Shown piece after piece: positions 720 to 54,133 of a stretch of 64,000 nt of DNA. Below the pieces are notes generated by a model, which saw only the letters and a program-made list of their open reading frames with translations, had not been told where the DNA came from and did not search any database. Position 1 is the first letter of the stretch. Each line of letters begins with the position of its first letter. The stretch lies in IMG/VR virus record IMGVR_UViG_3300048503_000086. One strand, 5' to 3'. The position numbers and the translations under genes are program-made. Source of the DNA: a virus (Duplodnaviria > Heunggongvirae > Uroviricota > Caudoviricetes).

Positions 720-750
720 AAGAGTTGCGAAAACTCTCAAACTGGTTTTA
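720..750 (-). promoter_or_regulatory. Copy 1 of the conserved motif AAGAGTTGC-N13-CTGGTT (candidate phage promoter)
   Basis: Sequence aAAGAGTTGCgaaaactctcaaaCTGGTTtta. Intergenic, about 55 nt upstream of the ATG at 663. Confidence 0.5.
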
Positions 751-797
751 GCGTTCCTCGCTTTTCTTACGGGCGACGCGCCGCTTGCGCGGCTTGG

Positions 798-1052
798 TTA
801 TTTCCGACCGGAGGGTTTGTGCGGTCTGGGGATCTCCGCCGCTTGCAGATCGGCGGCGTTGGCAGCCTGCCGGGCGTCGATTTGGTCGGCGCGAAGACGA
901 GCGACGACCTCCTGGCCGCTGGCCGGCGGCGGTTCGATGACTTCGCTCACGAATCGGGTGAACCACCGGCTGCGTATCAGCAGCTTGTAGACGAGAAGCC
1001 CCAAGAAGACTATGACAAACGTTGCCAGAACTTCGATGGTTGCCATCAGCAT
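798..1052 (-). CDS. Small membrane protein (1 TM helix)
   Basis: 84 aa: MLMATIEVLATFVIVFLGLLVYKLL... AGGAG ribosome-binding site 5 nt upstream of the ATG. Confidence 0.5.
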   Translation of the reverse strand: MLMATIEVLATFVIVFLGLLVYKLLIRSRWFTRFVSEVIEPPPASGQEVVARLRADQIDARQAANAADLQAAEIPRPHKPSGRK

Positions 1053-1062
1053 GACTCCTGGT

Positions 1063-1599
1063 TCAGATTCTCGGGTTCACGTCCAGCACCTTCCCGAAAC
1101 GAGTGAAAGATGCCCTGAAGGAGGGCGCTCTTCGTCCCCAGTACACGAAGCAACAGGACATGGGTGCTCCCTTCTCGACCACCTTGCCAGCCAGCAGGAA
1201 CTTCAGCCGGGGCACCCGCAAGAAGCAAATACTCCTTGCTCTTAGGAACACGTTGTCCTGCCAATGGCGCGTGTTGGTTGCCACGGGGATGAGGGCGATG
1301 ATTTCCGACTCATGTTGCTCGTGGGCATTGCTGCACCTCAGCAGCCATTCTTTGATGCTGGTCCCGTTCGTATTCCTGCCGTAGGGCGGGTTGACGTAGA
1401 TCGTGGGGAAATCCCAGGTCTCTCGCAACCCGTTGTGTTTCGGCAGCTTGTACTCCACTTTCGCTCCGACGAGAGCGTAGTCATTGGAGCACGGGTCAAG
1501 AGCAATCCAGCCACCGAAGAAATCCCGGATGACCTGGACATACTCCGCGGGCGTATTCCAATCCTTTGTTAGTGAGGTGACGTGTCTTCCGGCGGTCAT
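1063..1599 (-). CDS. Phage-type N6-adenine DNA methyltransferase
   Basis: IYVNPPYG (NPPY catalytic motif IV); about 178 aa, a typical size for phage Dam-like methyltransferases. Confidence 0.8.
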   Translation of the reverse strand: MTAGRHVTSLTKDWNTPAEYVQVIRDFFGGWIALDPCSNDYALVGAKVEYKLPKHNGLRETWDFPTIYVNPPYGRNTNGTSIKEWLLRCSNAHEQHESEIIALIPVATNTRHWQDNVFLRARSICFLRVPRLKFLLAGKVVEKGAPMSCCFVYWGRRAPSFRASFTRFGKVLDVNPRI

Positions 1600-1639
1600 G
1601 CGGTGTTGCCGCCGATCTTATGAATTGCTTTCATTGCCT

Positions 1640-3266: not shown

Positions 3267-3275
3267 GGCGATCTC

Positions 3276-3656
3276 CTACTGGACCGGCCCCATGCCGGGC
3301 CCGACGTTGCGGACCAGGTTCACGTCCTGGATGCCCTTGAAGGTCAGGTTGAACTCGCGGACCGCGCGCTTGAACTCGGGGTCCCCGAAGCGCTGGCGAA
3401 TCTGTGCCAGGGCCAGTTTCACCTTGTCCTTGGAGGCTTTGGCCGCCGCACTCCGGCCGCCCATCGTGCCAGCATCGGTCTTGATCTGCTCCCGCAGGGC
3501 GGCGAGCTGCGCCTTGCCGCGGTCCTTCTGGTTTCCGACCAGCTTGAGTTGGGCGCGGGCCTCGCGCTGACCGCCGCTGGAGGCCGCCGCCTTGAGGGGC
3601 ATTACCACGTCGAGTTTGCGGGCTCGGGCAGGGTTGCTCGCTTTCGCTTTGACCAT
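3276..3656 (-). CDS. Lys/Ala-rich basic protein (possible DNA-binding)
   Basis: 126 aa. AGGAGCC ribosome-binding site upstream of the ATG. Confidence 0.5.
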   Translation of the reverse strand: MVKAKASNPARARKLDVVMPLKAAASSGGQREARAQLKLVGNQKDRGKAQLAALREQIKTDAGTMGGRSAAAKASKDKVKLALAQIRQRFGDPEFKRAVREFNLTFKGIQDVNLVRNVGPGMGPVQ

Positions 3657-3707
3657 TTTCTGGCTCCTGGTTTAGTGGTTTGCTTGTTTCCGGGCGACGG
3701 CATGAAA

Positions 3708-4100
3708 TCACACGCCTAGCTCCCGGAGGGCTTGGACTTCCTCTGCCGTGAGCTTCTTGATCGCTTGCCGCCGGGCTTTGACGAGCCCTTCGTACTCTTT
3801 CGCTTCTTGGCGGAACCGGGCGATTGCCTCTTGGTAGGCTTTGCGGCAGGCTTCCTTCGTCCCTTGGCCGGAGCCTCCGCAGGCGGCGCAGGGTACGGTG
3901 CGTCGGTTTCGGTTGCCTTCGACCGGGTACGGCGGGTCTTGCGGGTCGTAGATCCATCCTCGGCCGGAACAAGCGAGGCAGGGCCACTTGTCGGCAGGGT
4001 GCAGTCCGAGCCAGTGCTGCTTGGTGGCAAACTCTTGCAGACTTCGGTAGGGTCGGACGGGCTTGACATGCTTCCATCCGGTGCTGAAGGTGCAGGGCAT
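3708..4100 (-). CDS. Cys-rich zinc-ribbon protein with helical C-terminus
   Basis: CLACSGRG...CAACGGSG. High third-position GC. GAGGAAG ribosome-binding site 7 nt upstream of the ATG. Confidence 0.5.
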   Translation of the reverse strand: MPCTFSTGWKHVKPVRPYRSLQEFATKQHWLGLHPADKWPCLACSGRGWIYDPQDPPYPVEGNRNRRTVPCAACGGSGQGTKEACRKAYQEAIARFRQEAKEYEGLVKARRQAIKKLTAEEVQALRELGV

Positions 4101-5345: not shown

Positions 5346-5402
5346 GGTTGCGCTCCCTTGGGGTTAAGTTGCGGGGCAGCCTAGTCCGCGCTCCGCCATA
5401 CC

Positions 5403-5433
5403 AAGAGTTGCGCAATCCTGAAAACTGGTTTTC
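5403..5433 (-). promoter_or_regulatory. Copy 2 of the conserved motif
   Basis: cAAGAGTTGCgcaatcctgaaaaCTGGTTttc. Between the stop at 5437 and the start at 5345. Confidence 0.5.
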
Positions 5434-5436
5434 CGA

Positions 5437-5700
5437 TCAGCGAATTTTGTTGCGTTCGCCGATTACGGCGGCCAGCGAGCGGCAGAGAAGGTCCCAGGCG
5501 AGCAGTCGCTTCCGCGGGAAGCCGAGGATCGTGCCGTGCCGCCAGGGACGGCCTGCTTTGTCCCGCAGGTCCACGAAGTAGTTGCCTACGGCCGGTCCGC
5601 CTGTGCCGAGGTTGGTGATCGTGCCCGTTGCAAGGGTCGTCTTGCGGGCCTCACAGCCGCCGGGCCATAGTTCGATCGTTATCTTCAGCATTACCGGCAC
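5437..5700 (-). CDS. Hypothetical protein (87 aa)
   Basis: ORF track; plausible globular sequence. Confidence 0.45.
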   Translation of the reverse strand: MPVMLKITIELWPGGCEARKTTLATGTITNLGTGGPAVGNYFVDLRDKAGRPWRHGTILGFPRKRLLAWDLLCRSLAAVIGERNKIR

Positions 5701-5709
5701 CCCCGCGGA

Positions 5710-6984
5710 TCATGGCCCCTCCCAGATGGCCCGATGGACGTAGCCGCTGCGGATCAGCCCGTGTTCCGCCGCGATCTTTTCGCAGTAGCCCCTGTCGATC
5801 TCGAAAAGGGAGCAGGGCAGGCCGAGACGTTTACACACTCTCAGCGTTGTCCCCGTACCGGCGAACGGATCGACCACGACGCCCCCGGGCGGCGTCGTCA
5901 GCTTCAGGCACCGTTCGACCAACCCCTCGTTCAGTTGGGTCGGGTGCCACGGGCGGCGCTGCTTGCTGTTGCCCGTCACCCGGGTGAAATTGAAGACATC
6001 GCTTAGCGACAAGTCACCAGTGACGTGCTGCCATGTCTTCCCGTCCTTGATGCTGCGAATGTTGGCCTCCGTGACGCCGTATTGTTTGGCAAGATCGACC
6101 AGGCGGTCGGCTGATTGGTAGATATGGATTACATTTTCGGTTGTCAGTTTCGTCAGTCCATTGGCTTCGCCGGTTGGATGCTGTCCTCGTCGCTTGATTT
6201 CCTTGTCACGGTTGTTGTCTCCATCTGATCCAATGAATAGATGGTTGGGATTACAGCAGCCAGGGTTGTCACAGGTGTGCAATATAAGCTGGCCGATGGG
6301 GTCAACTCCGTGTGTCAGTCGCCACATCAGACGTGTGGCGACGTATAGCTGTTCACCGATGCGAAAGCGGCCGTAACCCGCACGCTTACCGGCAGTCCAC
6401 TCCCAGCAGTTTTCCTCATTGCATCGGTCTATTTTCGCCAGGAACCGTTCAACATCCTGCGCGGTCCAATTCGGCAGCGGCAGTGTATCACGCTCACCGT
6501 AAGCAAAGTGAGCCACATCGCCTGGCACCCGCCCGCGGGGATCAGCACGCTTGTCGCCGTTCTCCTGCCGCCAACTTGGCACGCGGATGGCGTCCGGGTA
6601 GAGCGGGGCGTCGGACCAGCGAAGTCGCAAGAGCGGCCGATGGTTGTTGCCCAGGTCGTGGTGGCTATGCTGACCGAAAGTGAACGTCTGGACGCAGGGC
6701 TTGGCCTCGATCGCGCTGCCGTGCTGGCCCTCGATCTCGGTCACGATGCGGCCTACTTGGAAGGTCCATTTCGCGTTGTAGGAGAGCCATACCGTCTTTG
6801 CCCTCGTGATGAAGCAGTTGAGCCAGCCGCGGAGCAAGTCGATGTAATCGCTCTCGGTGCGACGATCCCTGTAGGTGTCGTAGCCCAGGCCGATGTTGTC
6901 CGGCGGATCGGCGAACAAGGTGTCCACCCGATCTGCCCCGGGCATCCACTCCATGCAGTCAGCATTGACAAGCGAGTATTTCAT
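5710..6984 (-). CDS. Beta-class DNA methyltransferase (N4/N6 family) with an inserted HNH endonuclease domain
   Basis: FADPPDNIG (motif IV) at the N-terminus and VVDPFAGTGTT (motif I) at the C-terminus. Between them: CWEWTAGKRAGYGRF...HTCDNPGCCNPNHLFIGSDGDN (HNH). The true start is the internal ATG at 6984 (MKYSLVNADCMEWM), which overlaps the upstream stop (ATGA). Confidence 0.8.
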   Translation of the reverse strand: MKYSLVNADCMEWMPGADRVDTLFADPPDNIGLGYDTYRDRRTESDYIDLLRGWLNCFITRAKTVWLSYNAKWTFQVGRIVTEIEGQHGSAIEAKPCVQTFTFGQHSHHDLGNNHRPLLRLRWSDAPLYPDAIRVPSWRQENGDKRADPRGRVPGDVAHFAYGERDTLPLPNWTAQDVERFLAKIDRCNEENCWEWTAGKRAGYGRFRIGEQLYVATRLMWRLTHGVDPIGQLILHTCDNPGCCNPNHLFIGSDGDNNRDKEIKRRGQHPTGEANGLTKLTTENVIHIYQSADRLVDLAKQYGVTEANIRSIKDGKTWQHVTGDLSLSDVFNFTRVTGNSKQRRPWHPTQLNEGLVERCLKLTTPPGGVVVDPFAGTGTTLRVCKRLGLPCSLFEIDRGYCEKIAAEHGLIRSGYVHRAIWEGP

Positions 6985-7661
6985 GTTGGGTCCAGTGCGG
7001 TCTCCGGCAGGAAGTAGTGGGAGCCGATGCCCTTGACGTTGAAGATCAGGATCTCTGCGTGAAACTCCACACCGGGGAACGTGTCCAGCGGGAGCGACAC
7101 GATGCTGGTCAGCTTGGCACCGCAATCCCGCAGCCATCGCCAGCGGGTGCTCTTGCGCCGTTGATTGAGGCGCATCCCCATCGGTGCGAACATGACCGTT
7201 GGCGTCCCGTACCCGAACAGCGTGAACGTGTGCTCCAGGAAGACCTCCGGGTACAGCCTCCGGCCGCTGGCCCCGTTGAAGGGCGGATTGCAGAGTACGA
7301 GATCCGGGCGCACCATGTCCGTTTGATCTTCATACCGGCCGTGACAGAACTCATTGCAGTAGGCGCTTCCTCGGTCGTCAATGTCGCAGCCGTAGATGTA
7401 GTGGCCGCCGTTGACCCAAGGGGCGGTCAATCGGCCGGTGCCAATGGCCGGGTCCAGGACAAGATGGAACGAATCCCGGCAGCGACCGCCCCCGGCACAC
7501 GGCCCGCGAGCGGCTCGCAAGGGCCGGGCATTGCACAGCGTTGTGTAAAGGAACTGTGCAACGCTGCTCGGCGTGTAGATGTCGCTCCGCTTCGGGTTGG
7601 CGGTGTAGTCGTTTCGTTTGACGGTCAGCGGGCTCACCATTACTTTGTCTCTTCGGACCAT
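6981..7661 (-). CDS. Gamma-class N6-adenine DNA methyltransferase
   Basis: LDPAIGTGRLT (motif I) precedes LVLCNPPFNGASG (motif IV). Start ATG at 7661, or at 7640 (TAATG coupling). Confidence 0.75.
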   Translation of the reverse strand: MVRRDKVMVSPLTVKRNDYTANPKRSDIYTPSSVAQFLYTTLCNARPLRAARGPCAGGGRCRDSFHLVLDPAIGTGRLTAPWVNGGHYIYGCDIDDRGSAYCNEFCHGRYEDQTDMVRPDLVLCNPPFNGASGRRLYPEVFLEHTFTLFGYGTPTVMFAPMGMRLNQRRKSTRWRWLRDCGAKLTSIVSLPLDTFPGVEFHAEILIFNVKGIGSHYFLPETALDPT

Positions 7662-13400: not shown

Positions 13401-14096
13401 TCACGGGAGCAATTCCTGGAACTTGGACGAGCCGATGCGAGTGCAACCCATGTCCAGGTAACGGACTGCATCAGCGTGAGTGTTGATCCCGCCGCTGGCC
13501 TTGACTCCGCACCGATATTCGCCCCCTACGGCGTCGAGCATGATCTGCACCACGTCTGGGGTTGCTCCGTGCGGGGCGAAGCCGGTCGAGGTCTTGATGT
13601 AATCCACGCCGCAATCAGCGCACAGGCGGGAGGCGTCCCTGATCTGGGTCGGCGTGTAATAGCAAGTCTCCAAAATGGCTTTGACGATCGCCCCTCGCGG
13701 GCGGGCCTCGGCGACGATGCGGGTCAACTCCGTTCTTATTGGGCCCGGGTCGCCATCCAGGAGCCGGCCGTAGTTGACCACTACGTCGATCTCCTTCGCC
13801 CCGGAACCCATTGCCTCCACGGCCTCCACCGTCTTGGTAAACGGAGTGGTGTTGCCGTGCGGGAAACCGACAACAGCACACACTCGGTCCGTATAAAGAG
13901 TTGCAAAAGAGACAAAACTGGTTGGGACGCAGACGGATTTTATTCCGTAGCGGCTCACCATCTCGCAGGCTGCGCGCACCTCGGCCGCCGTTGCGGTGGG
14001 CTTCAACACTGCCAGGTCCAGGGAATCGGCAATGCGCTTTACAGCGGTTGAGCGGTCGTCGGGTGTGGCTTCAGGCTTGATCTGACTGTTGTTCAT
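13401..14096 (-). CDS. deoC: Deoxyribose-phosphate aldolase
   Basis: Motifs GFPHG, EIDVVVNY, VKAILETC, VKASGGI. Aligns along its full length to class I DeoC enzymes of about 220 aa. Confidence 0.85.
   Translation of the reverse strand: MNNSQIKPEATPDDRSTAVKRIADSLDLAVLKPTATAAEVRAACEMVSRYGIKSVCVPTSFVSFATLYTDRVCAVVGFPHGNTTPFTKTVEAVEAMGSGAKEIDVVVNYGRLLDGDPGPIRTELTRIVAEARPRGAIVKAILETCYYTPTQIRDASRLCADCGVDYIKTSTGFAPHGATPDVVQIMLDAVGGEYRCGVKASGGINTHADAVRYLDMGCTRIGSSKFQELLP
13896..13926 (-). promoter_or_regulatory. Copy 3 of the conserved motif, embedded in-frame inside deoC
   Basis: aAAGAGTTGCaaaagagacaaaaCTGGTTggg. Encodes ...PTSFVSFATLYT... in a variable DeoC loop. Confidence 0.45.
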
Positions 14097-14165: not shown

Positions 14166-14924
14166 TCAGAAGTTGGTGAAGAGAATCTCGACCTTGTTGC
14201 TGCACTCGCCCCGGCGCTCGCAGGCTCCCCGACGGGGTGTGTCCCGCGCGATCCGGTTCCAATGTGGGTAGCAACACGCAGCCGCTAGCGACTCGGACAC
14301 GATCACCTTGGCACTGGCCGAGTTCAGCAATTCGACCATTGCCGGATAGTCAACGCGGTAGCGGTACTCGTCCTCGTGGCCCACGTAGGGTGGATCGACG
14401 TAGATCAGGGCCTCGGAGTCGTTGTAGACCCGCTGGATTGCGGCCAGTGCGTCCTCGTGCAGCAGCGCGACCCCGCGCATCCGGTTGGCGGCCGGGAGCA
14501 CCCGTTGGAACCAATCGGCCCAGACTTCCTGCTTCGGCTTGTGCGGGGCCGGGCACTTGTCCAGCGACCATGTGGAAGAATTGCCATTGCCGCAGTAGAA
14601 CTGTGCGCCCTGCGCCATCAGCAGCACCGCCTGGTCGATGTCGCCCACTGGCCGCTGCCGCCAGTTGGCGGCCGTATAGGGCGTGGCCCACAACAGCGCC
14701 GCCAGTTGCTCGGGTTGCGATTTGATGGCCCGCCACATGCCCATGACCACCTCGTCCAGATCGTTAACGATCTCAACGAATGACCGCGGCTTGGCCAACA
14801 GCACGGCGGCCGAGGCGCAGCACGGCTCCATGTAAACCCGGTGCTGCGGGAAGTGGGAGACGATCCACTTGGCGATGGACGCCTTGCCGCCATATTGGCG
14901 ATAGGTGATCTTGGGCGTGGCCAT
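14166..14924 (-). CDS. dam: Dam-family (alpha-class) DNA adenine methyltransferase
   Basis: N-terminal YGGK motif and IYVDPPYVG (DPPY). Confidence 0.85.
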   Translation of the reverse strand: MATPKITYRQYGGKASIAKWIVSHFPQHRVYMEPCCASAAVLLAKPRSFVEIVNDLDEVVMGMWRAIKSQPEQLAALLWATPYTAANWRQRPVGDIDQAVLLMAQGAQFYCGNGNSSTWSLDKCPAPHKPKQEVWADWFQRVLPAANRMRGVALLHEDALAAIQRVYNDSEALIYVDPPYVGHEDEYRYRVDYPAMVELLNSASAKVIVSESLAAACCYPHWNRIARDTPRRGACERRGECSNKVEILFTNF

Positions 14925-16747: not shown

Positions 16748-16766
16748 GCCACATCCCTGCCCAATA

Positions 16767-16797
16767 AAGAGTTGCAAAACACGGTTAACTGGTTTTC
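16767..16797 (-). promoter_or_regulatory. Copy 4 of the conserved motif
   Basis: aAAGAGTTGCaaaacacggttaaCTGGTTttc, about 20 nt upstream of the ATG at 16747. Confidence 0.5.
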
Positions 16798-16938
16798 AGC
16801 GGCTTGCGAATTCTCACTGCCTTGTAGCTGTCGTACAGAACGCCCCCTTCAGCGAGCAGTGCTGTAACGCTCGGGCATTTTCCTTGCCGTAGGCCAGTAA
16901 CACCGATGGGCCGCCGGCGTTGCCCTTGCCTGTCTTCG

Positions 16939-17921
16939 TCATAGGGCGACTTGCTGAGTTCTTTGGATTCGTTGAAGGGCTTGCTCGTACACGGCCTGGT
17001 TGATCTCGGCGGCAAATGCCATTCGGCCGGCTTCCCCCGCCGCAATCGAGGCGGTGCAAAGGCCGCCGAACGGCTCCCACACCACGTCGCCCGGGTCCGA
17101 GCAACTTTTCACGAGCAACTGCATGAGTGCGAGCGGCTTCTGGTTGGGATGGACCACGCTGCCCTGGACCTTGATCCGTTCCTTGCCGCGCACCGCCGGG
17201 ACGTGCCAGACGTTGGTTACCCCGGCTTCACAGTGAAACTTCCCGCGAAGCTGCTCCCACTGTGAAGCCGCAAGGCTCGTCTCGCCGTCAACCGAAAAAT
17301 AGGGACGGCCCGAGGGGTCGCCGTGCGTGTTGGCGTAGTCCACCAGCCGTTGGAACACGTCGGGCGGCGGGAAGTACCACAGATAATCGCTGGTGAGATA
17401 CTTGCGAGTGGCGGCGTTCTTCACGCCGCACGCCTCGTTCGACTTGGCGAGAGGCAGTCCGGTCCGCCGCCATTCCGCCCGGAGCCACTGCTGGGCAGAA
17501 AGCGGAGAGTCCGCGGCGGTCAATCGGAACTGGGGTTGCCGGACGTAGTGGACGCATACCTCGGTGACAACGGGGAACTTCCGCAGCGTTTGCGTGTTCG
17601 TGTTGCCGGCGACGTGGGCCAGACCCTTGTCCCAGACGCAGCACGCCGGTAAATCCAGCCCGCGTCCCGCAGGACGGGGTGGACTTCCGCCCAGCCGACC
17701 TCCGTGTTCCATAACCAAAGCGTCGTGCTCGCGGTAGCACGGCGGGTCCATGCCGCAACGTGCGGCTCGTACCACTGGCGGAGTTGCTCCGGCCGTGCGA
17801 GGTCGCCGTCGTAGCCGCTGAGACCGTAGGGTCCATCGGAAACGATGAGCGCCGGCGAGTCCCACTGATCGTAGAAGATCAGCGCGTCCCCACGGCAGAG
17901 ATGGATCAAGGCGTCATTCAT
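16939..17921 (-). pseudogene. Beta-class N4/N6 DNA methyltransferase split by a frameshift near 17640-17655
   Basis: N-terminal part (frame of ORF 17520-18038): MNDALIH...SDGPYGLSGYDGD...TLWLWNTEVGW. C-terminal part (frame of ORF 16939-17865): ...CVWDKG...HPNQKPLALMQLLVKSCSDPGDVVWEPFGGLCTAS. The two frames overlap about 135 nt with no stop. Confidence 0.6.
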
Positions 17922-18094: not shown

Positions 18095-19096
18095 ATGCCT
18101 CGTACCGCTGCACGGAAAGTTGTCTACAGGCCGTTGGTCCATCTGCCTCCGTTGTCTGCCGAAGACTGCGAAGGACTCCGGGCGTCGATTGCCGTAAGCG
18201 GCGTCGTAGTGCCGATCGTCGTCTGGCCAAAGGGCAAGACCAGATTCGTCATCGACGGCTCCTATCGGAAGAAGATCGCGGATGAGCTAAGCTACGAGTG
18301 TCCTGAACTGGTCCGCTCTGATCTCACCGAGGAAGAGGCTCGGATCATGGCTCGCGCCTTGAACCTTGCCCGTCGCCAGCTTGATCGAGGGCAGAAACGT
18401 CAAATCATTGCAGACCAAGTCGAAGAAACACCCGATCGTTCGGCCCGCTGGGTCGCCAAGATGCTCGGTGTCAGTCCCCAGACTGTCGCCAGTGTCCGCG
18501 ACGAACTCCGACATAACTGTGCAGGTGCTCAAATTGAGCACCTGCACAGTTGTGTCGGTGGGGATGGCAAGTCTTATCCCTCTCATTCCTTGTCAGCGGA
18601 CATTGATCGTGTTACGCCAGTCAATCACGAACGCTACACGCCTCCCGAATTGACGAGCATGGTTCAGCGCGCCTTGTGCAAGATCGACCTCGATCCAGCT
18701 TCCAGTCGGGAGGCGAACAAGACCGTTAAGGCTGCATCCTTCTTCACGAAACAGATGGACGGGCTAAAGCAGCGGTGGCGCGGCTGCGTCTTTCTCAATC
18801 CGCCTTTTGATAATTGGCCTGCTTGGGTGGCAAAGCTGGATCAGGAAATCAAGGCCGGCCGCGTGAAGCAGGCGGTCGTTATCGGTCCGGCCAACATCTC
18901 GGCGTTTCGACCCTTGCTCAAGCACGGCGGCTATCTTTTCCTCCCGAATGAGCGGCCCAAATACTACAGTCCGGGCGACGATAAACGGATTGACCCTCCC
19001 TTTGGCTCCCTGATATGTTACGTGGGGCCAAAGCCAGCCCGTTTTCTTTCGGTGTTCGGCAAGCAGGGGTTGATCCTCAAGGCAGTCAGGCCCTGA
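18095..19096 (+). CDS. Fusion of ParB-like N-terminal domain with phage-type N6-adenine methyltransferase
   Basis: N-terminus VVPIVVWPKGKTRFVIDGSYRK (ParB/Srx fold); central HTH; C-terminus CVFLNPPFDNWPAWV (NPPF motif). The only plus-strand gene in the 1-42 kb block. Confidence 0.8.
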   Translation: MPRTAARKVVYRPLVHLPPLSAEDCEGLRASIAVSGVVVPIVVWPKGKTRFVIDGSYRKKIADELSYECPELVRSDLTEEEARIMARALNLARRQLDRGQKRQIIADQVEETPDRSARWVAKMLGVSPQTVASVRDELRHNCAGAQIEHLHSCVGGDGKSYPSHSLSADIDRVTPVNHERYTPPELTSMVQRALCKIDLDPASSREANKTVKAASFFTKQMDGLKQRWRGCVFLNPPFDNWPAWVAKLDQEIKAGRVKQAVVIGPANISAFRPLLKHGGYLFLPNERPKYYSPGDDKRIDPPFGSLICYVGPKPARFLSVFGKQGLILKAVRP

Positions 19097-23055: not shown

Positions 23056-23085
23056 TGTGACGTGCCTCAACGGTGCTCAGATGGG

Positions 23086-29147: not shown

Positions 29148-29148
29148 A

Positions 29149-36639: not shown

Positions 36640-39600
36640 TCAACGCCTTCCATCACTTCGCCCATCGTCATCAGCTCCAGCTTCCGGTTGGCGCGGATCA
36701 CGTCGAGCACGCGGCCGTCGCTCGGCAAATGGATCAGATCGACGATGGTGCAGCCCAAGTTCATCGTCCATGCCCAATGCGATGGATGCGGTCCTCGCTC
36801 TGGTGCGGTATTCCGGCTTATAGGAGTTGGACCAGTAGACCGCCATGCGGGCCTCCACCAGCGTCAGGCTCATGCCGCCCGACTCGGGATTGGCCACGAA
36901 GGCAACCGCGATGGTTCACCTCCCTGTTGGCCCAGTAGTCCAGCGGCTCTTCCGTCACGGGCGAGTCATGGGCTGTCGTGCGGCAGGACTTGGAAGTTGC
37001 CCTGGTCGCAGCGCACCACGTCCCACTTTTCCTTCACACAGCTTGACGATGCGATCCACCGAGCCGGTGAAGCCGGCGAACACCACGATGCGGCCCGTCT
37101 CCTCGTTCTCGTCCAAGAGCATCTTCAGGCGGCGTCCTTCGGGCAGGCAACCTCGCGGGTCGTGCGGACCATCTTGGCACTTCCTTCGTGCCGCCGCACG
37201 CGGGCAGGCACCGTCTGCTTGACCAGCCGGGCCTATGACCTCTTCCGGGAGCAGATCGATGCCGGGATAGACGTGGCTCCGGGTCTTCCGGGTCCAGCCA
37301 GATCCGTCACCGTGCCATCCGTGCAATGCGTGCAGCGGGTCATGCCGTCCTGCTGCCTCGCGGTACTGGAAGCCGTCGCTCAGCTCGCGCAGGAGGTCAT
37401 GCCCGTCACGGCGTTGGGTGCCGCTTCCACAAGGGCCTCGGCCACGCGCAGTGTGCTGGCGGTCGGCTTGCAGACGATCTTGCGGTATCGCTTCTCGGGC
37501 AGGTCAGGCAGTCCTTCTTGTGCTTGATGACCACCAGCCCTTGAGCCGTTCGTAGAGGTAGGCGACCTCGTTCTTGCTGGGCGTGAACGGTGGTACTCGG
37601 GGTCGGTCAAGCCGTCCAGTTCGTGCGGCCCCTCCTCACGACGTCTCGCCGCACTGGCGCATTTCCGATTCGTCGTCCTTCCAGCCGATGCGCTTCTTGA
37701 AGGCCGGTCGTCGAATTGCTGATCGACCATGAAGGCCAGCCGCTCTTCCATCGCCCGGCGGCTGCCCTCGCGCAGGAAGCCGGGCCAGGCGATCTCGCAC
37801 TGGCTCCACCAGTCCACGGGCGTCTTGGGCGACGGCGTGCCGGACATCTCGATCACGTAGCCTGCTCCAGGCCGTACTTCTCGCGGATCATGTCCGCGAG
37901 CTTTGGCAGGCGCGGGAGCGCTGCGAGGTGTCGTTCTTGCACCGGCTCGATTCATCGCCACGAAGGCCGTGCGGGGCAAGGTCTGCGAGCCTCCCACTCG
38001 TCCATCACGCGGACCAGCCCCTCGTAGGTGAAGAACTCGACCTGGAATGCGGTCGAAGGGGAACCCCACATGCGGAACTCGCGCTTGATGTTCGGCAGGC
38101 TGGTCTTCGGGCCGCCCAGAACCAGATCGACGCCCGACTTTCTCGATCACCTCTTGGGCCGGCCAGGGTCTTGCCGGTGCCCATTTCGGCCGCCGAAATC
38201 TGGTAGTGGTAGGTCAGGCCGGCATCGGCCAGGTCCATTTGCATGTCTGCGGCATCAGCGGTCAACGGCCGGTACTCGTGCCGCACCAGCGGCCGGTCGA
38301 ACCAGGCGTAACACGTCCTCGCCGCAGAGATAACCGATCTGGAAGCGGTTGCGCTGGCAGTCGTCCACCGACCAGACCTTTGATCTTGGCGTACTCGCCC
38401 TCGTCGTCGTAGCCGTGGAAGTGCGCGCCGCGCATGGCCTTGACTTCCGCCATCAGCCCATAGCGCGTCTTCGTGCCGACTCTTGCCGTCCCAGAAATAG
38501 ATGCGGCCGTCCTTCTTCTCCAAGGCGACCGGCACGCGAATCCGCGTGCCGCTGGATGTCTGGGCCTCGACTTTCACGGATTCAAGCGACATGCAATCTG
38601 AGGCCTCGGGCGATCTCGCAGTTATGCTCGTCAACTCGACGCCGATCGAGCGGCGGCCGAGCCGCTGGGCGGCCAAGAGCGTGGTGCCGCTGCCGGCAAA
38701 CGGGTCCAGAATCACGCCGCCATCGGGGTCGAAAGCAGCGTGAGCAGAGTATTCCATCAGGGCCAGCGGCTTGACCGTGGGTGGTCGTTGCCTCGTCCCG
38801 CGCTCCTTCCGAGTCGCCTTGGCACAGTAGAAGAACCGGCTCGCTCCGCCTGTGTCGCCGTAGCTCACCTGAACGTCGCCGGCCTTGCCGAGACCGCCGT
38901 GATAGCCGTCGCCGGACTTCGTGCGGACGCAGTTGGTGCCGCTGGTGAGCGTGCCGGTCTGAGCATCCAATTGGCGGCGGCCTCTTCGTCCAAGAGCAGA
39001 TTCGCCGGCCAGCGGCCCGGACTCATGAACTGGGCCCCTTCACGGCGACCGCTTCGATGCTCGACTCAGCCAGCTGTTTGCCGTCAAGCTCGTCCCGTTC
39101 CGCGCGTTGTACTTGTAGCCGGGGTTTCGCCGATGCGGGAGGCGTCGATGTTCATGCCCGCCACGCCCCAGGTCAGGGCGTTGTGGGCAATCGTGCCGTC
39201 CAGCGGCTTCATCGCCAGGACGATTGGCTCCCAGGCCGGCTTCAGGGCCATCGCCCAGCCGGTCCACCTCGCGGCCTCGGGAGTGGCCGGGGCGGTTATC
39301 TGCGCGGCGCGAAGCCGAGCGTCCGTGCCGGGGGCATGGAGTCCGTTGCCGCCGCCGTAGCACCCGTTCCCCTTGCCCTCGTGCAAGTGATAGCCGGGAC
39401 GGTCCAGCTTGTCGCCAATGACCTCGCGCTCCGCGCCTTTCGACTTGTCGATCAGCTTGCCGATGTCGCCGCACTTGGGCATCCCCTGCCCATAGAGCCA
39501 CATCAGCGCGTCCCGAATCTCCCAGCCGGCGTCTTCGATTGCACAGTCAGCCGGTGATAGGTCCGCGTGCCGCCAAAGGCGAGCAAGAGCACCGGGCTTG

Positions 39601-39792
39601 CACACGCGGGCAATGGCCCGCCAATACTCGGGTCCGGGAACCTCGTGGTCCCAGTCCTTCTCCATGAAGCTGAGTCCGTAGGGCGGGTCCGTCACCACGA
39701 AGTCCACCGCACGCCTCGGGCAAGGCCGGCAGCACATCGCGCAGATCGCCGTCGTAGAGGGCGATGTTGCCGTCTGTGTGGTAAGGTCTCAA
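36640..39792 (-). pseudogene. Remnant of a large fusion of a beta-class DNA methyltransferase with an SNF2-family helicase (resembling the P1 anti-restriction protein DarB), broken by several frameshifts
   Basis: Pieces in different frames: MRPYHTDGNIALYDGDLRDVLPALPEA | AVDFVVTDPPYG...NIDASRI | SRFFYCAKA...HPTVKPLALMEY...ILDPFAGSGTT | AAEMGTGKT (helicase motif I) | MSGTPSPKTPVDWWSQ (SNF2 motif III region) | LLDENEETGRIVVFAGFTGSVDRIV (helicase C). Confidence 0.5.
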
Positions 39793-39842
39793 GGATCGCC
39801 TTTCGTGGCTGTCGAGCAGGCCAATGCGTTGAACGCCACATC

Positions 39843-39873
39843 AAGAGTTGCAAAACGCAGAAAACTGGTTTGG
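39843..39873 (-). promoter_or_regulatory. Copy 7 of the conserved motif
   Basis: cAAGAGTTGCaaaacgcagaaaaCTGGTTtgg, upstream of the methyltransferase-helicase remnant. Confidence 0.5.
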
Positions 39874-39879
39874 CCGACC

Positions 39880-40407
39880 TCAACGATTTCTCTTGTCTTC
39901 CAGGTAGAAGGTCTGCTGGTCCGGCGCGGTCCGGGCGCAGAAGTCGGTCCACACGCTCAAGTCCGCAGCCTCAAAGAGGGTGAAGATCCGGTTGAAGCAC
40001 TGCCGCACCGGCATCGTGGCAGTCGGATCGCTGCCCGATCTGACGGCATCCCGCCACTGGGCCAACGTCCCGGTTATGACGGCAATCTGGATGTTGTTGG
40101 CAATCGTGTTCGCCACGACGAAGGGCATACCCGCAGCACACTGCAAGATCGCCAGCATGTCGCGTTCGTCGGCGGCAACGAAGACACTGAAGCTGACGTG
40201 GGCAAGTAGACTCGGGACAAAACCCACCGGAGCCTTGGCGTCGCGCATCGCCGCCAAGTAGCTCAGAAAACGCTCGGCATCCGACAACTCACGCGGGCAC
40301 AAGTCGGCCTTGTCCGTCAGGCTGTACCCCAGCGCGCGGTGGCTCAAGCCCAAGAAGGTCGTGAAGTCGATGGTCGGCTTGTTAATCAGGACGGCATCCG
40401 GCTTCAT
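39880..40407 (-). CDS. Hypothetical protein
   Basis: Internal ATG at 40407: MKPDAVLINKPTIDFTTFLG... Confidence 0.5.
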   Translation of the reverse strand: MKPDAVLINKPTIDFTTFLGLSHRALGYSLTDKADLCPRELSDAERFLSYLAAMRDAKAPVGFVPSLLAHVSFSVFVAADERDMLAILQCAAGMPFVVANTIANNIQIAVITGTLAQWRDAVRSGSDPTATMPVRQCFNRIFTLFEAADLSVWTDFCARTAPDQQTFYLEDKRNR

Positions 40408-42494: not shown

Positions 42495-42496
42495 CT

Positions 42497-42590
42497 ACAC
42501 CTACAGGAGATGTCAAAAACGGGCGGTTTTTTCAGAAAAGGGGCACCGTTTGTGAAAAAAACACTCGTATCTGACATCTCCTGTAGGTGT
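42497..42590. repeat. Perfect 19-bp inverted repeat (ACACCTACAGGAGATGTCA / TGACATCTCCTGTAGGTGT) flanking a 56-bp AT-rich spacer, in the divergent intergenic region
   Basis: Read directly from the sequence. Confidence 0.7.
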
Positions 42591-42630
42591 AGCTATGCCA
42601 CCGACTTCCACGCCGGCTCTCAGCGCCGGA

Positions 42631-42695
42631 AAGCGTGTAAACGCATCTATCGGGGCTAGACGATCCTCTCTCAAGAGCGTGTAAACGCATCTATC
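42631..42695. promoter_or_regulatory. Two 20-bp direct repeats (AGCGTGTAAACGCATCTATC) spaced about 46 bp, each with internal dyad GCGT-N4-ACGC. Candidate operator or iteron sites next to the primase gene.
   Basis: Read directly from the sequence; lies just upstream of the plus-strand operon start. Confidence 0.5.
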
Positions 42696-42703
42696 AGCCC
42701 ACA

Positions 42704-46977: not shown

Positions 46978-47018
46978 GTGAGTCCTACATGGCTTTGCCC
47001 GCATAGGCATCGGAATTC

Positions 47019-47049
47019 TGGAACCAGTTAGCCGGTTTCTGCAACTCTT
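47019..47049 (+). promoter_or_regulatory. Copy 9 of the conserved motif, inverted on the plus strand so that its orientation matches the plus-strand genes
   Basis: gaAACCAGttagccggtttctGCAACTCTTtaa, 33 nt upstream of the ATG at 47082. Confidence 0.5.
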
Positions 47050-47081
47050 TAAGAGGGCGGGCAGCACCTTGAGCACAGACC

Positions 47082-47696
47082 ATGAAAACCTACTCCTCGC
47101 TCGTGACCTGCAACGGCAATCTGTTGGTCTCCATCGACCTGGAGACAACCGGCACCCAGCCGGGCTACCACGAGATCATCCAGATCGCCATTGTGCCGCT
47201 GAACAGCGACATTCGCCCCATCGCGGAGTTACCGGTCTTCTACACCAACATGAAACCGAAGTTCCCGCGCCGCGCGGAGAAATCGGCCACTGCCAAACAC
47301 GGCATTACGATTTCCGACCTGCTGCAAGCGCCGGAGCCGGAAAAGGTCGAGGACATGCTGGTGGAGTGGTTCGAGCGGCTGGAACTGCCCTTCGGCAAAG
47401 TGCTCGTCCCGCTCGCCCACAATTGGGCCTTCGAGTCCAGCTTCCTGAAGGCATGGCTGGGGTGCCCGATGGTGGACCGCATCTTCCACTCGCACGCCCG
47501 GGACGGGATGCTCACTGCCATTGCGCTCAACGACCGGGCGGCCTTCGCCGGAGAGCCGGAGCCCTTTAACCGGGTGGGTCTCGGCTCCATCTGCCACAAA
47601 CTGGGGATCGTCAACACGAAGGCGCACGACGCCCTGGCCGACGCCTATGCCGGGGCCGAGGTGTACCGCGCAATGGCCCTGGGAATGGTGGGATAA
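47082..47696 (+). CDS. DnaQ-like 3'-5' exonuclease (second copy)
   Basis: VSIDLETTG (Exo I); HDALADAYA (Exo III). Confidence 0.8.
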   Translation: MKTYSSLVTCNGNLLVSIDLETTGTQPGYHEIIQIAIVPLNSDIRPIAELPVFYTNMKPKFPRRAEKSATAKHGITISDLLQAPEPEKVEDMLVEWFERLELPFGKVLVPLAHNWAFESSFLKAWLGCPMVDRIFHSHARDGMLTAIALNDRAAFAGEPEPFNRVGLGSICHKLGIVNTKAHDALADAYAGAEVYRAMALGMVG

Positions 47697-50179: not shown

Positions 50180-50243
50180 GGGAATGTCCCTTCTTGCGTG
50201 AGCAGCGATCGGTGCCTGGTCCACGAGACCGGCACAAGGTCGC

Positions 50244-50492: not shown

Positions 50493-50578
50493 CTTCGTAC
50501 TCGCTTTCTGAAACAGAGAAAACAACACAACACAAACGGAAGCGGACCTACATCGGCCCACCTCTCACTCGCACTACG

Positions 50579-50758: not shown

Positions 50759-50781
50759 GAGATGCCTCCTTCACGAAAAGG

Positions 50782-53700
50782 TTAGTAAACGATCGCCGAA
50801 ACCAGGGACGCAACAGTGCTCGCGTCGGTCTGAATTGCCGTGAACTGGGCCGAATTCAGCGTGACTCCCCACGCCTGAGACACAAAAGGCGCGATGAGAG
50901 TCACGGTACTGGCCATGCCGAGGGCCAGGTTCGACACGTCGGCCGCCAACCGGGCAACGTCCGTCCCAAGCCGAGTGGCCGCCGTCACAATCGCAGTCGT
51001 CGAGCCTACCGAGATGCCGCGCACCACATTGGCCACGGCATCCAGTTGCACGGTCGCTGCCGATCCCGGCACGTTGTAGAGGTAGTCCGACATGGCGGGT
51101 GTGTACGCGGCCTCGGCCTTCGCAAGATCCATCTTCAGGGCATACGTCGCGCTGGTGTTCGTGGGGTCGATCACCGGGGCACCGACCTGGCCCAGGCTAA
51201 AGAAATCCCCCAGGTAGCCAAAGTTCTTGGGACCGGGATTCTTGCTGTCCATGATCTTCGTCGTGGAAAGGTCGATCACCACGCTCACCGGGAGCGGGGT
51301 GTCGGAGATCACCGACTCCTCCAAGTAGTCCAGGGCCAGATCCAACAGCGCAGGCGTTCCCACGGTGTAGCTGGTATACTGGTTGGGAAGGACCACCGGC
51401 TGTGCCGCAAAACCCGTGTCCCCCGGCGTGGGGTCGCCCCAGTCGGGATGGGGACCGAAGATCACGTTCGGGCCGCCGACAAAGACCCCCTGGGCGATAG
51501 GCCGCACGCCGCCGGCGGGCACCGTCGAGCCGTTGCCCGTCAGGCTGCCGTTGGGGCCGACCGGGATGTAGTAGCTCGCCGAGGGCAACTGGCCGACCGG
51601 AAGGAGGCCGTTGGCGTTCATGCCGATGCCGCCGCCCCCGAAGCCCACCGTCTCCGTCACCGAGGGCGGCCAGGTGGTCGTGGTCGGCAAGGCCGAAGGC
51701 CAGTAGTAGGGGAACTGGACCATCGCCCCGGCGTTCACGGGGCACTCGCACTCGAAGTCGATGCTGTTCTCGGCCGAATTGTAGGCGGCCTTCTGCACCA
51801 GCACGGGCACGGCCGCCGAAGCCACCGCCCCCGGGACATCAAACGTCACGCAGTCGAAGGTCTCCAGGTTGAGCTTGTTCAAGAACGCGCGGAACCTGAT
51901 CCGCTTCCAGATCATGGAGTAACGGATGAGCCAGAAAGTGGCCATCTTGAGGATGATGTCCGGCTGATTGAAGATCCACCAGTCGTAGTCCTTCTCCCAG
52001 AGCCCATAGCGCGAGACATTGTGCCGCAAGACGATCAACTGCTCCTGCTGCTCTCCCGGCTCGGGGGCGTAGCCCATCCGCCACTTGACGTTCATCTTGG
52101 TGACCAGGTTCTCCGTGTCCGTGGAGGCGATCTCCATGCCGTGCTCGGAGTCGATGTCGCTGACGGTGATCGTGTCCACCGGCGTGGGCTCTTCCGGCAG
52201 GTAGGTGAGGTAGACCACCTCGTTCTCGATCCAGATCGCACAGCGGCACTGGAAGGCGATGTCCTTGAGCACTTGCAGCACATTCTTGCGCTCCAGCAAG
52301 GGGAAGTTGGCCGGGAAAGGGGCCAGCATCGTGCGGCAGTGGTTGAAGGAGGTCGCGTCCCAGGTGAGGTCCGTGTAGTTCTCGATCAGGTACTCCAGGA
52401 TGTCCACGATGTTCGGGCCGACCGACGACTGGAATGTGACGTAAAGCTGGTCCGACCAGCCCGTGATCCAGTTGCTGTTCAAGTCCTGATAGACCATCAG
52501 GGAGAGCCGCTGCTGGAGGACGATCTGCACGGCCGTAATGCTGCCGTACTGGACGGTCTCGACCGTGTACCAGCTCGGCGGCACCACGTTCAGCACCCGC
52601 TGGCCGTTGACCGTCTGGAACGCCTTGACGCAGAGCACCTGGCCGGGCACGATGGAGGCGATGAAATTGCAGCCCTGGTTGACGCCCAACTGGACCTTGG
52701 CTCCGGCGTCCGCCCAGAACTGCTTGGCGGTCAGCGTCGGCGGCTTCACGATGGGGTTGGTGGGCACCGTGAGGATCACGACCGCCTCGTCCAGCACGCA
52801 GGGGTTCGGAGCCGCAGGGGCAGCGCCGGGGGTGATCGGCACGCCCAAGGCGCTAGTCATGCTCAGCGTGCCGGTGGCGACCTCCGTGTTGAAGTTGATA
52901 ACATCACCCAGGCTGCCGCAGGGGATGTTGGCGGTAAAGTGCAGCGTGGCCGCCGGCGGCGGATTCAGCAGCGGGCAATCAATCAGGTGCTGCGCCGCCT
53001 TCAGTTCCGCGTTGGCCACTTCCAGGTTGTAGCGCACGATCACCTGCGGGTCCTCCGCGGAGGCGATCGTGAAAAGCTCGCCCTGGAACGACCCCGTAAG
53101 GTAGGCGCTGCCCAGGGTGATCTGAACTTGCTGGTTCTGCGGGAAGTCCTCTCCTCCCAGGATGTGGATCGGATTGGCCCCGGTATACCCGGCCAGCTCC
53201 GACAACTGCCGGGCGCGGGTAGCCAACATGCAGGCTTCCTTCTTGTTCAGCAGGAATTCCTCGTTGGCCATCTGGTTGGAAATCGCCTGGGCCATCTCCC
53301 GGTACTGCTGGTACTGGACAGGGTCCACGTCCTCCCAGAGGTCGGCCGCCTGGTTGTAGACGTTCAACTGCTGGCCCTGCTTCCAGAGGCCGAACAGCGT
53401 GGAGGGGTCGAAATCCGTGCCGTTGGCGTACAGCGGCAGGATCTCGCCGGTCCAGGTCACGAACCCCACGGGGTCCAAGGTCACGCCCTCGATGGCCATG
53501 TTGACTTCCAGGGCGGCGTAGTCGATGACCTCGCCGAAGACCATCGGCCAGGGCTTGCCGATCATCTCGCTGGGGATGTAGGGAAAGCTGCCCTCCTCCA
53601 CCGAGAAGCCGACTTCCAGGTTCTCCAGCGGCGAGACGATGGTGACCTTCAGGGTCCGGTCGCGCTCGTTCCAGGTCACCGGCGTATTGATCCGCCCGGC

Positions 53701-54048
53701 GAACACCAGGAACTTGTCGGACAGATCCAGCCCCGTGAACCACTGATAGATGCGGACGTGGACGTTGTAGATGTCGTAGGCGTCGAAGATCGCCTTGAGC
53801 GATCCGTCCGTATCGTCCAGCGTCAAGGCCACCTGCGCCGAGCTGCCGTTGAAGGCGAGGTCCAGCACGTCGTCCAGGTCGCCCAGGTCCACGATCTTGC
53901 CGGGGATGGGCGGTGGCCCGGGAAGATCCCGGTCGGCGTAAGACTGCGTGGCAGCACCCTTGTACCAGTCGATCTCGACGATCGAGATCGGCTCAGTCCC
54001 GTACTGGGCGGCGAGCTTGGCCAGGCCGTTGCTGGAAATCGTTCGCAT
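50782..54048 (-). CDS. Large tail protein (1088 aa; host-specificity / central tail-fibre-like)
   Basis: Size, position between the tail-fibre genes and the tape measure, and the motif-8 copy in its 5' leader. Confidence 0.65.
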   Translation of the reverse strand: MRTISSNGLAKLAAQYGTEPISIVEIDWYKGAATQSYADRDLPGPPPIPGKIVDLGDLDDVLDLAFNGSSAQVALTLDDTDGSLKAIFDAYDIYNVHVRIYQWFTGLDLSDKFLVFAGRINTPVTWNERDRTLKVTIVSPLENLEVGFSVEEGSFPYIPSEMIGKPWPMVFGEVIDYAALEVNMAIEGVTLDPVGFVTWTGEILPLYANGTDFDPSTLFGLWKQGQQLNVYNQAADLWEDVDPVQYQQYREMAQAISNQMANEEFLLNKKEACMLATRARQLSELAGYTGANPIHILGGEDFPQNQQVQITLGSAYLTGSFQGELFTIASAEDPQVIVRYNLEVANAELKAAQHLIDCPLLNPPPAATLHFTANIPCGSLGDVINFNTEVATGTLSMTSALGVPITPGAAPAAPNPCVLDEAVVILTVPTNPIVKPPTLTAKQFWADAGAKVQLGVNQGCNFIASIVPGQVLCVKAFQTVNGQRVLNVVPPSWYTVETVQYGSITAVQIVLQQRLSLMVYQDLNSNWITGWSDQLYVTFQSSVGPNIVDILEYLIENYTDLTWDATSFNHCRTMLAPFPANFPLLERKNVLQVLKDIAFQCRCAIWIENEVVYLTYLPEEPTPVDTITVSDIDSEHGMEIASTDTENLVTKMNVKWRMGYAPEPGEQQEQLIVLRHNVSRYGLWEKDYDWWIFNQPDIILKMATFWLIRYSMIWKRIRFRAFLNKLNLETFDCVTFDVPGAVASAAVPVLVQKAAYNSAENSIDFECECPVNAGAMVQFPYYWPSALPTTTTWPPSVTETVGFGGGGIGMNANGLLPVGQLPSASYYIPVGPNGSLTGNGSTVPAGGVRPIAQGVFVGGPNVIFGPHPDWGDPTPGDTGFAAQPVVLPNQYTSYTVGTPALLDLALDYLEESVISDTPLPVSVVIDLSTTKIMDSKNPGPKNFGYLGDFFSLGQVGAPVIDPTNTSATYALKMDLAKAEAAYTPAMSDYLYNVPGSAATVQLDAVANVVRGISVGSTTAIVTAATRLGTDVARLAADVSNLALGMASTVTLIAPFVSQAWGVTLNSAQFTAIQTDASTVASLVSAIVY

Positions 54049-54102
54049 GGCAAGACCTCAAACGTGCGATGGGGACGTGCAATGGGCGCGAGGCCCCGCT
54101 AT

Positions 54103-54133
54103 AAGAGTTGCAAGAACGGCGGAACTGGTTTCC
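54103..54133 (-). promoter_or_regulatory. Copy 8 of the conserved motif
   Basis: tAAGAGTTGCaagaacggcggaaCTGGTTtcc, 55 nt upstream of the ATG at 54048. Confidence 0.5.

Follow-up and report, generated by a model that had tools for sequence, protein, structure and literature searches.

A nine-copy bipartite motif with the layout of a sigma-70-type promoter in a Caudoviricetes genome, and its co-variation with a phage sigma factor gene

The DNA analysed here is a 64,000-nucleotide stretch of the uncultivated Caudoviricetes genome recorded in IMG/VR as IMGVR_UViG_3300048503_000086 (the window, to which all positions refer unless another locus is named), and its subject is a repeated bipartite element, AAGAGTTGC-N13-CTGGTT, copies of which stand before both replication genes and a tail gene (Table 1). 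Gene context was established by frame-by-frame analysis of stop and start codons combined with Pfam and PHROG matches; a GC3-based gene caller was discarded as unreliable, having chosen shadow open reading frames (ORFs) on the plus strand. Seven of the nine copies are intergenic, one lies at the 3' end of a gene (29151) and one within a gene (13896). The intergenic copies are found 0-50 nt past the stop codon of the upstream gene, and the likely start codons follow 19-105 nt downstream, within 57 nt in six of the seven; an earlier note on this DNA had the number of intergenic copies right, and the distance of 13-55 nt that it gave is replaced by these values. Eight copies face genes that are mostly on the minus strand and the reversed one lies in the sole plus-strand block (42.7-47.7 kb), indicating that all nine are aligned with local transcription, and each is placed 12-105 nt before a plausible start codon.

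The copy overlapping the ParB-like gene heads an operon that extends from 28770 through the family-A DNA polymerase gene (25835-28336) to genes for a sigma factor and a 5'-nucleotidase, and an mRNA beginning at its predicted start would open with GGAGCGAAUGAUG (GGAG), directly at the Shine-Dalgarno sequence. This site, as well as the one between the nucleotidase operon and the ligase gene, is syntenic in relatives. Scans for terminators at 22-31 kb and 39-48.5 kb yielded hits at or below the level of chance. The copies at 47022 and 54103 share an extra CGGAATTCTGG directly upstream of AACCAG (47001-47030 and 54122-54151), so that their -35 half is covered by a partly palindromic CTGGaaCCAG, and in both of them TTCT(T)GC replaces TTTTGC. 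These two may form a separately regulated, perhaps late, subclass.

Exact matching found the pattern nine times in the window, where no match is expected, and 100 dinucleotide-preserving shuffles of the window gave zero matches. The halves are separated by 13 nt in every copy. Allowing two mismatches added a single site (10322), which is at chance level, and in a window scan with a weight matrix built from the nine copies these scored 39.9-54.5 bits while everything else reached at most 15 bits. Given this gap in scores and the single unrelated two-mismatch site, we regard the set as sharply delimited, which is usual for promoters specific to a phage. Besides the nine-copy motif, no over-represented bipartite motif was found in the window. 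The number of copies, the constant spacer, the negligible probability of chance occurrence (here for the bipartite pattern) and the orientation with local genes had all been given in the earlier note and hold. Its other descriptions needed revision: the 14-mer said to occur nine times is present as exact AAGAGTTGCAAAAC only three times, the invariant parts being AAGAGTTGC and CTGGTT; the copy placed at 47019 is real, its core pattern covering 47022-47049 and 47019 being the beginning of a longer 31-nt form; and the 31-bp unit contains the core of a conserved unit that measures about 56 nt and includes an A-rich tract and a downstream invariant G.

Counting in the direction of transcription from the first A of AACCAG (p1), a first conserved block, aAACCAGTT (p-1 to p8), is followed by seven unconserved positions of fixed length (p9 to p15) and by a second block, TTTTGCAACTCTTtAT (p16 to p31). 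The A-rich tract occupies p-21 to p-16, that is 16-21 nt upstream of AACCAG, with A at p-17 in eight of nine copies; the excess of A/T in this tract is significant by resampling (P<5e-5) in a genome of 62% G+C. Past the second block, G is found at p34, 6 nt downstream of CTCTT, in all nine copies and at p35 in eight. Beyond the ~56-nt unit the flanks of the nine copies are unrelated.

Read as sequence, the conserved unit parses as a bacterial promoter in one register. The -35 element would be aAAACC (p-2 to p4), followed by AGTT; a 17-nt spacer, its last bases T-rich, would lead to an extended -10 with T at -15 and G at -14 (p19 and p20) and to a -10 hexamer AACTCT (p22 to p27), and a 6-nt discriminator, TtATnn, would precede the predicted start, the G at p34 of all nine copies. 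The hexamer keeps A at -11 and T at -7, which are the most conserved -10 positions across the sigma-70 family, and the A-rich tract maps to about -54 to -49, the position of the distal UP-element subsite in E. coli promoters. All nine copies thus show two blocks around a free 7-nt core at the same spacing, as well as the sigma-70 order of -35, spacer of 16-18 nt, -10 and 5-8 nt to a purine start. The same register is found in 32 of 33 listed sites of the five variants described below; the one row out of register is owing to the search pattern used. Extended -10 (TGn) promoters are used by sigma factors of groups 1-3; the contacts in sigma-70 are made by H455 and E458 of region 3.0 and by Q437 and T440 of region 2.4. 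The likeness of the window's motif to such promoters lies in T -15, G -14, A -11, T -7, the 17-nt spacer and the 6-nt discriminator; the difference lies in AACTCT, which shares 2/6 bases with TATAAT.

Several other signals were considered and rejected. A sigma-54 promoter (-24/-12; TGGCAC-N5-TTGCW) does not fit, the GG-N10-GC spacing being absent: with GC at p20-21, the bases 12 nt upstream are TT in eight of nine copies. An intrinsic terminator or structured RNA is equally at odds with the data, as fold z-scores range from -1.15 to +1.74, no fold is common to the copies and there are 0 Rfam matches; on both of these points the earlier note had judged the same way. Promoters of T7-type single-subunit RNA polymerases are one continuous block of ~20 bp whereas this motif is bipartite, and no RNA polymerase gene was found among the ~40 window ORFs scanned, which included nearly all of at least 300 aa and did not extend to small ORFs or to the genome outside the window.

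The operon headed by the ParB-side copy carries the sigma factor gene, which the earlier note had placed at 24214-24924, the longest ORF. Because homologues begin at the residue equivalent to window 24879, the GTG at this position is the probable true start. The product matched PHROG family 351 (sigma; 3.5e-10), and a profile of 17 homologues searched against PDB matched region 2 of SigF (the best match, 2.4e-12), SigA, RpoD, RpoS, SigK and FliA and essentially nothing else. Its AlphaFold model (pLDDT 78.5) consists of N-terminal and C-terminal helical domains joined by a disordered linker of low confidence, and in a Foldseek search of PDB nearly all of its best matches were sigma factors. The generic sigma-70 model TIGR02937 was matched by 16 of the 17 family members and Sigma70_ECF of Pfam by five (best 1.7e-4); since scores were all below the curated equivalog cut-offs, the protein falls outside every named subfamily. 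The best sequence matches were SigE/F/G/K and RpoS. The protein keeps the segment IRIPH, aligned with IRIPVH of sigma-70, and its region 2.3 is without the tryptophan dyad (YIGVAVA vs YATWWIR). A single-sequence Pfam search of the ORF gave just a sub-threshold match to the IclR helix-turn-helix (HTH), and taken alone this search would wrongly reject the sigma call. Together, profile and modelled-fold evidence identify the ORF as a divergent member of the sigma-70 family, so that the identity proposed in the earlier note stands while the start moves. At 50% identity the family comprises at least 148 clusters (E <=1e-30) from metagenomes in a library of 1.84 billion proteins; it is thus sizeable and named by no curated model. 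A second sigma-like ORF, 19086-20060, has a weak Sigma70_r4_2 match but is ParB-like by PHROG and was not retained.

The motif was followed into relatives of the phage. IMG/VR contig 3300041955_001975 (113.8 kb) is 91-97% identical to the window over most of its length, with one 1.5-kb block at 87.5%, and carries nine homologous copies and one more outside the window (L059). Among 50,697 cultivated phage records, neither megablast of the primase gene nor tblastn of the sigma factor gave a match; the matches of the window DNA polymerase were all below 30% identity, and there is no annotated relative that would serve for comparison. Distant relatives have a common gene order, phosphoesterase - ParB - DNA polymerase - sigma - nucleotidase - ligase, and the sites before the polymerase operon and before the ligase show the same architecture in the same register with clade-specific letters. 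De novo searches in the relatives (exact gapped 6-mers, ungapped self-comparison and three-way cliques) recovered five variants, V1 to V5, each given here with the identity of the accompanying sigma to that of the window: V1, AACCAG-N13-GC-AACTCT, at least 65% (11 loci); V2, AACCAG-N13-(A/T)C-GTCTCT, 53-60% (L095, L102, L160); V3, CGCGCAcAAc...AC-GACTCT, 46-52% (6 loci); V4, TCCAAA...GC-AGTCTA, 42-45% (L115, L165); and V5, TCCAAA...GC-TAGTAT or TAGTTA, 31% (L148, L149). All variant copies are on the strand of the sigma gene, and nearly all have the G at p34 and the preceding A-rich tract.

In a tree of the sigma factors built by the unweighted pair group method with arithmetic mean (UPGMA), each of V1, V2, V3 and V5 matches a single sigma cluster; L154 and L101, which were misplaced in this tree and have frameshifts in their assembled sigma genes, were excluded from the clade argument. 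Exact scans of IMG/VR with V1 to V4 each returned ~90-120 or more stretches on contigs that were nearly all matched once, which is chance level, and the only multi-copy contig in each scan was the one with the cognate sigma (10, at least 3, 5 and at least 3 copies, respectively). The five variants and the four scans indicate that, among the relatives and the IMG/VR contigs, the motif is as a multi-copy element confined to, and co-varies with, sigma-bearing genomes. Absence of the motif from relatives carrying the same sigma had been named in the earlier note as an argument against its proposal; apart from several more distant clades, the relatives carry the motif or a variant specific to their sigma clade. 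Single syntenic sites in more distant clades have TAGATAG-, TATAGAG- or TAGGAGTAGG-like elements, and since there is one per locus they were not counted as evidence. Sigma relatives with surrounding phage genes also occur in four Planctomycetota genome bins (L154, L155, L156, L157), assigned to Pirellulales (94% identity, at one end of a contig of 699 kb), to Thermoguttaceae twice and to Planctomycetaceae, indicating that the phage probably infects Planctomycetota. Three of these four relatives are on contigs of 0.14-1.07 Mb, and the bins hint at prophage or episomal states as a possibility.

The copy inside the DeoC-family aldolase gene is the sharpest test of whether selection acts on the DNA of the motif, and comparison with L095 argues that it does. 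In this protein the Pfam DeoC match spans residues 29-211, and residues ~58-70 are those encoded by the motif. The aldolases of the window and of L095 are 65% identical and are the same on either side of the motif (SVCVPTS ... RVCAVVGFPHGN), while nearly all of the ten residues from its downstream half differ (FVSFATLYTD in the window, LVRFTSLLLG in L095) because the two genomes have different DNA there, TTTTGCAACTCTTTAT in one and CTTTACGTCTCTCTTAT in the other. At the same codons the window thus has a V1 copy and L095 a V2 copy; the motif has changed its variant within a conserved gene for an enzyme, just as the intergenic copies of that genome have.

The stretch of the sigma factor that aligns with sigma-70 regions 2.3-2.4 (YATWWIRQAITR vs YIGVAVASRLGQ) is the most variable part of the protein. 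In sigma-70, Q437 contacts promoter base -12. The equivalent residue is S or C in V1 and T in V4, both with A at -12, and R in V2 and N in V3, both with G at -12, a pattern that is suggestive. V1 and V2 promoters differ essentially at -14, -12 and -11 (G..AA vs A/T..GT), and at the Q437/A438-equivalent positions their sigmas have S/C-R/Q and R-E, respectively. The V5 sigma keeps the canonical YWIRR, and the -10 paired with it, TAGTAT, is the most canonical of the variants. A simple residue-to-base code at the Q437-equivalent was rejected, as it fails for V5 (R with T at -12).

Considering the geometry of the motif, the identity of the sigma factor and the co-variation of the two in relatives, we think it probable that the nine copies are promoters for the host multisubunit RNA polymerase core carrying the phage sigma, in agreement with the earlier proposal that a phage-directed polymerase reads them. 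In the scheme that we infer, which takes in the start site, the assignment of halves to domains, the UP-like role, a feedback loop and the timing, the C-terminal HTH domain of the sigma factor would recognise the -35 half and region 2 the TG together with the -10 half, and the A-rich tract would play an UP-like role. The promoters would drive replication and nucleotide-metabolism operons (DNA polymerase, ligase, exonuclease and small genes of unknown function) in addition to at least one tail gene, and the copy upstream of the sigma factor's own operon would provide positive feedback once early transcription has yielded the first sigma. A candidate for the early region supplying this first sigma is the low-GC divergent gap at 42495-42703, which contains an inverted repeat.

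The motif could instead be read by a host sigma, for example one of the many alternative or extracytoplasmic function (ECF) sigmas of Planctomycetota, with the phage sigma serving other, unrecognised promoters. The AAC of the upstream half is typical of ECF -35 elements, V2 relatives show AAC-N17-CGTC, a classic ECF layout, and the position of the sigma gene behind one copy would be explained most simply if a pre-existing host sigma fired that copy. We nevertheless consider this unlikely, because the variants shift between closely related phages of shared gene order and in doing so track the phage sigma clade, because each variant is multi-copy only in a contig with the cognate phage sigma, because the window leaves no other over-represented motif for the phage sigma to read, and because the -10 hexamer is more canonical exactly where region 2.3-2.4 of the phage sigma is. 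ECF (group 4) promoters have AAC at -35 and CGT(C) at -10, ~16-17 nt apart, and natural families of mutually distinct ECF sigma/promoter pairs exist. The window resembles them in the AAC and in having a small sigma, modelled with two helical domains; the ECF promoter class was rejected for the window, as its -10 half is GCAACTCT and not CGTC, which occurs only in V2 relatives. The best matches of the window sigma are likewise group 3 sporulation sigmas and RpoS, not ECF models. The ECF classification does not cover phage sigmas; the family is reviewed in PMC7826278.

Slightly less probable again is that a different DNA-binding protein of the phage, activating or repressing transcription (for instance one of the two ParB/HTH proteins), binds the blocks, which would then lie beside weak host sigma-A promoters and regulate these without being promoters themselves. 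ParB-like HTH proteins are indeed encoded at 29149-30012 and 19086-20060, and the partly palindromic extension around the upstream half of the copies at 47022 and 54103 is operator-like. ParB sites, however, are normally palindromic and clustered, whereas this motif is asymmetric, strictly co-oriented and spans the exact -54 to +2 footprint of a holoenzyme with TG, A -11, T -7 and the G start in register, and the copies are not accompanied by sigma-70-consensus hexamers. That the motif is no transcription signal at all, but serves in replication or packaging, acts at the RNA level (as a terminator, a processing site or the target of a small RNA) or is a miniature repeat that moves, would suit a dispersed, highly conserved repeat with one copy inside a gene but is very improbable, since conservation ends within ~56 nt between unrelated flanks with no terminal inverted repeats or target-site duplications (a longer element of the miniature inverted-repeat transposable kind, the possibility raised against the proposal in the earlier note, is thereby rejected), there is no common RNA fold and no Rfam family, the copies are at syntenic positions in diverged relatives and not at variable insertion points, and a variable 7-nt core of fixed length is typical of protein-DNA recognition over two half-sites.

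Some observations count against promoters served by the phage sigma. V1 and V2 sigmas have different region 4.2 helices, yet AACCAG is found with both. Co-variation of motif and sigma is supported by only about five independent variants, and shared descent would give the same co-variation for any phage- or host-encoded reader. As the sigma gene is downstream of one copy, starting the loop needs another promoter or read-through, and sigma-70 consensus scans for such a promoter at 22-31 kb and 39-48.5 kb gave results at or below chance. Furthermore, the ~50 kb of the 113.8-kb relative that lie outside the window hold just one further copy, so that most structural genes would need very long operons or another promoter class. 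The de novo searches that recovered the five variants gave no convincing repeated motif in L161, L164, L166, L169, L173 and others.

Systems of this kind are already known, a phage sigma with cognate promoters being textbook knowledge; what is new here is the consensus, together with the sigma family and the probable host phylum. Gp28 (middle) and gp33/34 (late) of Bacillus phage SPO1 and T4 gp55 are phage sigmas that displace the host sigma on the host core and direct it to non-host hexamers. SPO1 promoters are bipartite (-35 and -10), as in the window, but the consensus sequences of SPO1 and T4 are unrelated to the one found here, and these phages have a temporal cascade of classes whereas the 64 kb of the window show one class and one sigma. 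T4 gp55 is without a -35-reading domain and needs the sliding clamp; the window sigma, in contrast, has a C-terminal HTH domain. The likeness to phiEco32 and its gp36 is that of a lytic-type phage with a divergent sigma-70-family sigma and a handful of nearly invariant intergenic promoters, six in phiEco32, ahead of middle and late operons (PMC4331800). The sigmas of phiEco32 and Salmonella phage 7-11 have a small number of highly conserved promoters, one of them upstream of the sigma gene itself, and these related phages, like those studied here, have related yet shifted consensus sequences (PMC4331800). The phiEco32 consensus differs in that it consists of one extended -10-like element of 9 bp, tAATGTAtA, and lacks a -35 half, whereas the window has invariant -35-like and -10-like blocks and an A-tract. 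The phiEco32 promoters have no sequence similarity to those of the window, the host phylum differs (probably Planctomycetota for the window), and, unlike in phiEco32, no anti-sigma was identified in the window.

With its UP-like tract, -35, TG, -10 and start, this promoter class of a sigma family without a curated name is unusual in its completeness and clear definition, and with it nine operons of the window become annotatable. To our knowledge, Planctomycetota have almost no known phages and few genetic tools, so that a sigma/promoter pair which is strong and self-contained might find use in that phylum. The natural specificity variants AACTCT, GTCTCT, GACTCT, AGTCTA and TAGTAT, each with a diverged sigma, make the residue-to-base reading testable by swapping. 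We tentatively suggest, as a possibility that falls short of the promoter assignment in likelihood, that this lineage has a diversifying sigma/promoter system in which both halves were rewritten genome-wide in concert at least five times, even inside the conserved aldolase gene despite the amino-acid changes, together with changes in sigma regions 2.4 and 4.2. If true, this would provide sigma/promoter pairs that are natural and orthogonal to one another, and an experiment of nature on the evolution of -12/-11 and -35 specificity, as well as the first described transcription programme of Planctomycetota-associated phages.

Table 1. Features of the window and of related loci. The strand is that of transcription or of the feature; the exact match is the position of AAGAGTTGC-N13-CTGGTT, with the strand carrying it in brackets.
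Feature	Position	Strand	Exact match	Predicted start	Context
Copy 1	713-768	-	720 (+)	G 714	AACCAG at 742-747, GCAACTCTT at 720-728; before gene with ATG 663
Copy 2	5396-5451	-	5403 (+)	5397	Before gene of 85 aa, ATG 5345
Copy 3	13889-13944	-	13896 (+)	13890	Internal to DeoC-family aldolase gene 13401-14096
Copy 4	16760-16815	-	16767 (+)	16761	Before small ORF, ATG 16747
Copy 5	23278-23333	-	23285 (+)	23279	Gap between nucleotidase operon and small gene (ATG 23247) plus DNA ligase gene (21946-23070)
Copy 6	29144-29199	-	29151 (+)	29145	Overlaps final codons of ParB-like gene 29149-30012
Copy 7	39836-39891	-	39843 (+)	39837	Before gene with ATG 39737
Copy 8	47001-47056	+	47022-47049 (-)	47055	Sole plus-strand copy, before RNase T-type exonuclease gene 47082-47696
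Copy 9	54096-54151	-	54103 (+)	54097	Before 1088-aa gene 50782-54048, adjoining tail-fibre genes in the tail-fibre / virion region
Sigma-70-family sigma factor gene	24214-24879	-			221 aa from GTG 24879; longest ORF to 24924
CGTGTAAACG copies	10402, 23142, 27365, 42634, 42678, 44131, 55400	+			
Direct repeat AGCGTGTAAACGCATCTATC	42632-42651, 42676-42695				Just before first plus-strand gene (ATG 42704)
Inverted repeat	42495-42592				Gap between minus- and plus-strand blocks
DNA methyltransferase genes	5710-7137, 14166-14924, 16939-17865, 38005-38970				Weakly also 39084-39737
RNase T / DnaQ-type exonuclease genes	1640-2533, 47082-47696				
CAACTGTCTCGCACTACGCGCC(C)ATG sites	L161:15860-15906, L163:14225-14260, L167:16330-16372, L171:15750-15787, L172:14870-14907				Distant relatives

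The window has further repeated elements. The 10-mer CGTGTAAACG is present in seven copies where 0.06 are expected, all on the plus strand regardless of gene direction and five of the seven inside coding regions; it looks like a strand-fixed signal at the DNA level, perhaps for replication, recombination or packaging, that is unrelated to the promoter motif. The perfect 20-nt direct repeat AGCGTGTAAACGCATCTATC, its two copies 44 nt apart, could be an operator or iteron pair. The inverted repeat has 47-nt arms that are 85% complementary around a 4-nt centre and lies in a gap of low GC (~52%). Each arm carries TGTCAAAAACGGGCGGTTTTTTCAGA, and the relative has a similar TGTCAAAAACGCCGTTTTTTTTCAGA (L059:2300-2325) ~65 nt ahead of its tenth promoter copy. 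This gap is a candidate for an early divergent promoter region or an origin.

Among the other genes of the window are at least four for DNA methyltransferases, a number that suggests heavy methylation of the genome; the one at 5710-7137 seems to carry an HNH endonuclease domain, either as an interruption or as a fusion. Two separate RNase T / DnaQ-type exonuclease genes are present beside that of the family-A DNA polymerase. In the relatives, a homologue of ribosomal protein S21 (PF01165) is encoded in one locus (L095:16162-16350), and tRNA-like genes, of which the window has none, are found in the same region of two others (L092:~3515-3590 and L167:~4010-4085). Distant relatives share another upstream element, CAACTGTCTCGCACTACGCGCC(C)ATG, which runs straight into the start codon and may represent a further class of promoter or leader there, and a related ..CAACTGCGGAGA.ACCCTGCGCCTATG lies upstream of the gene preceding sigma in distant relatives.

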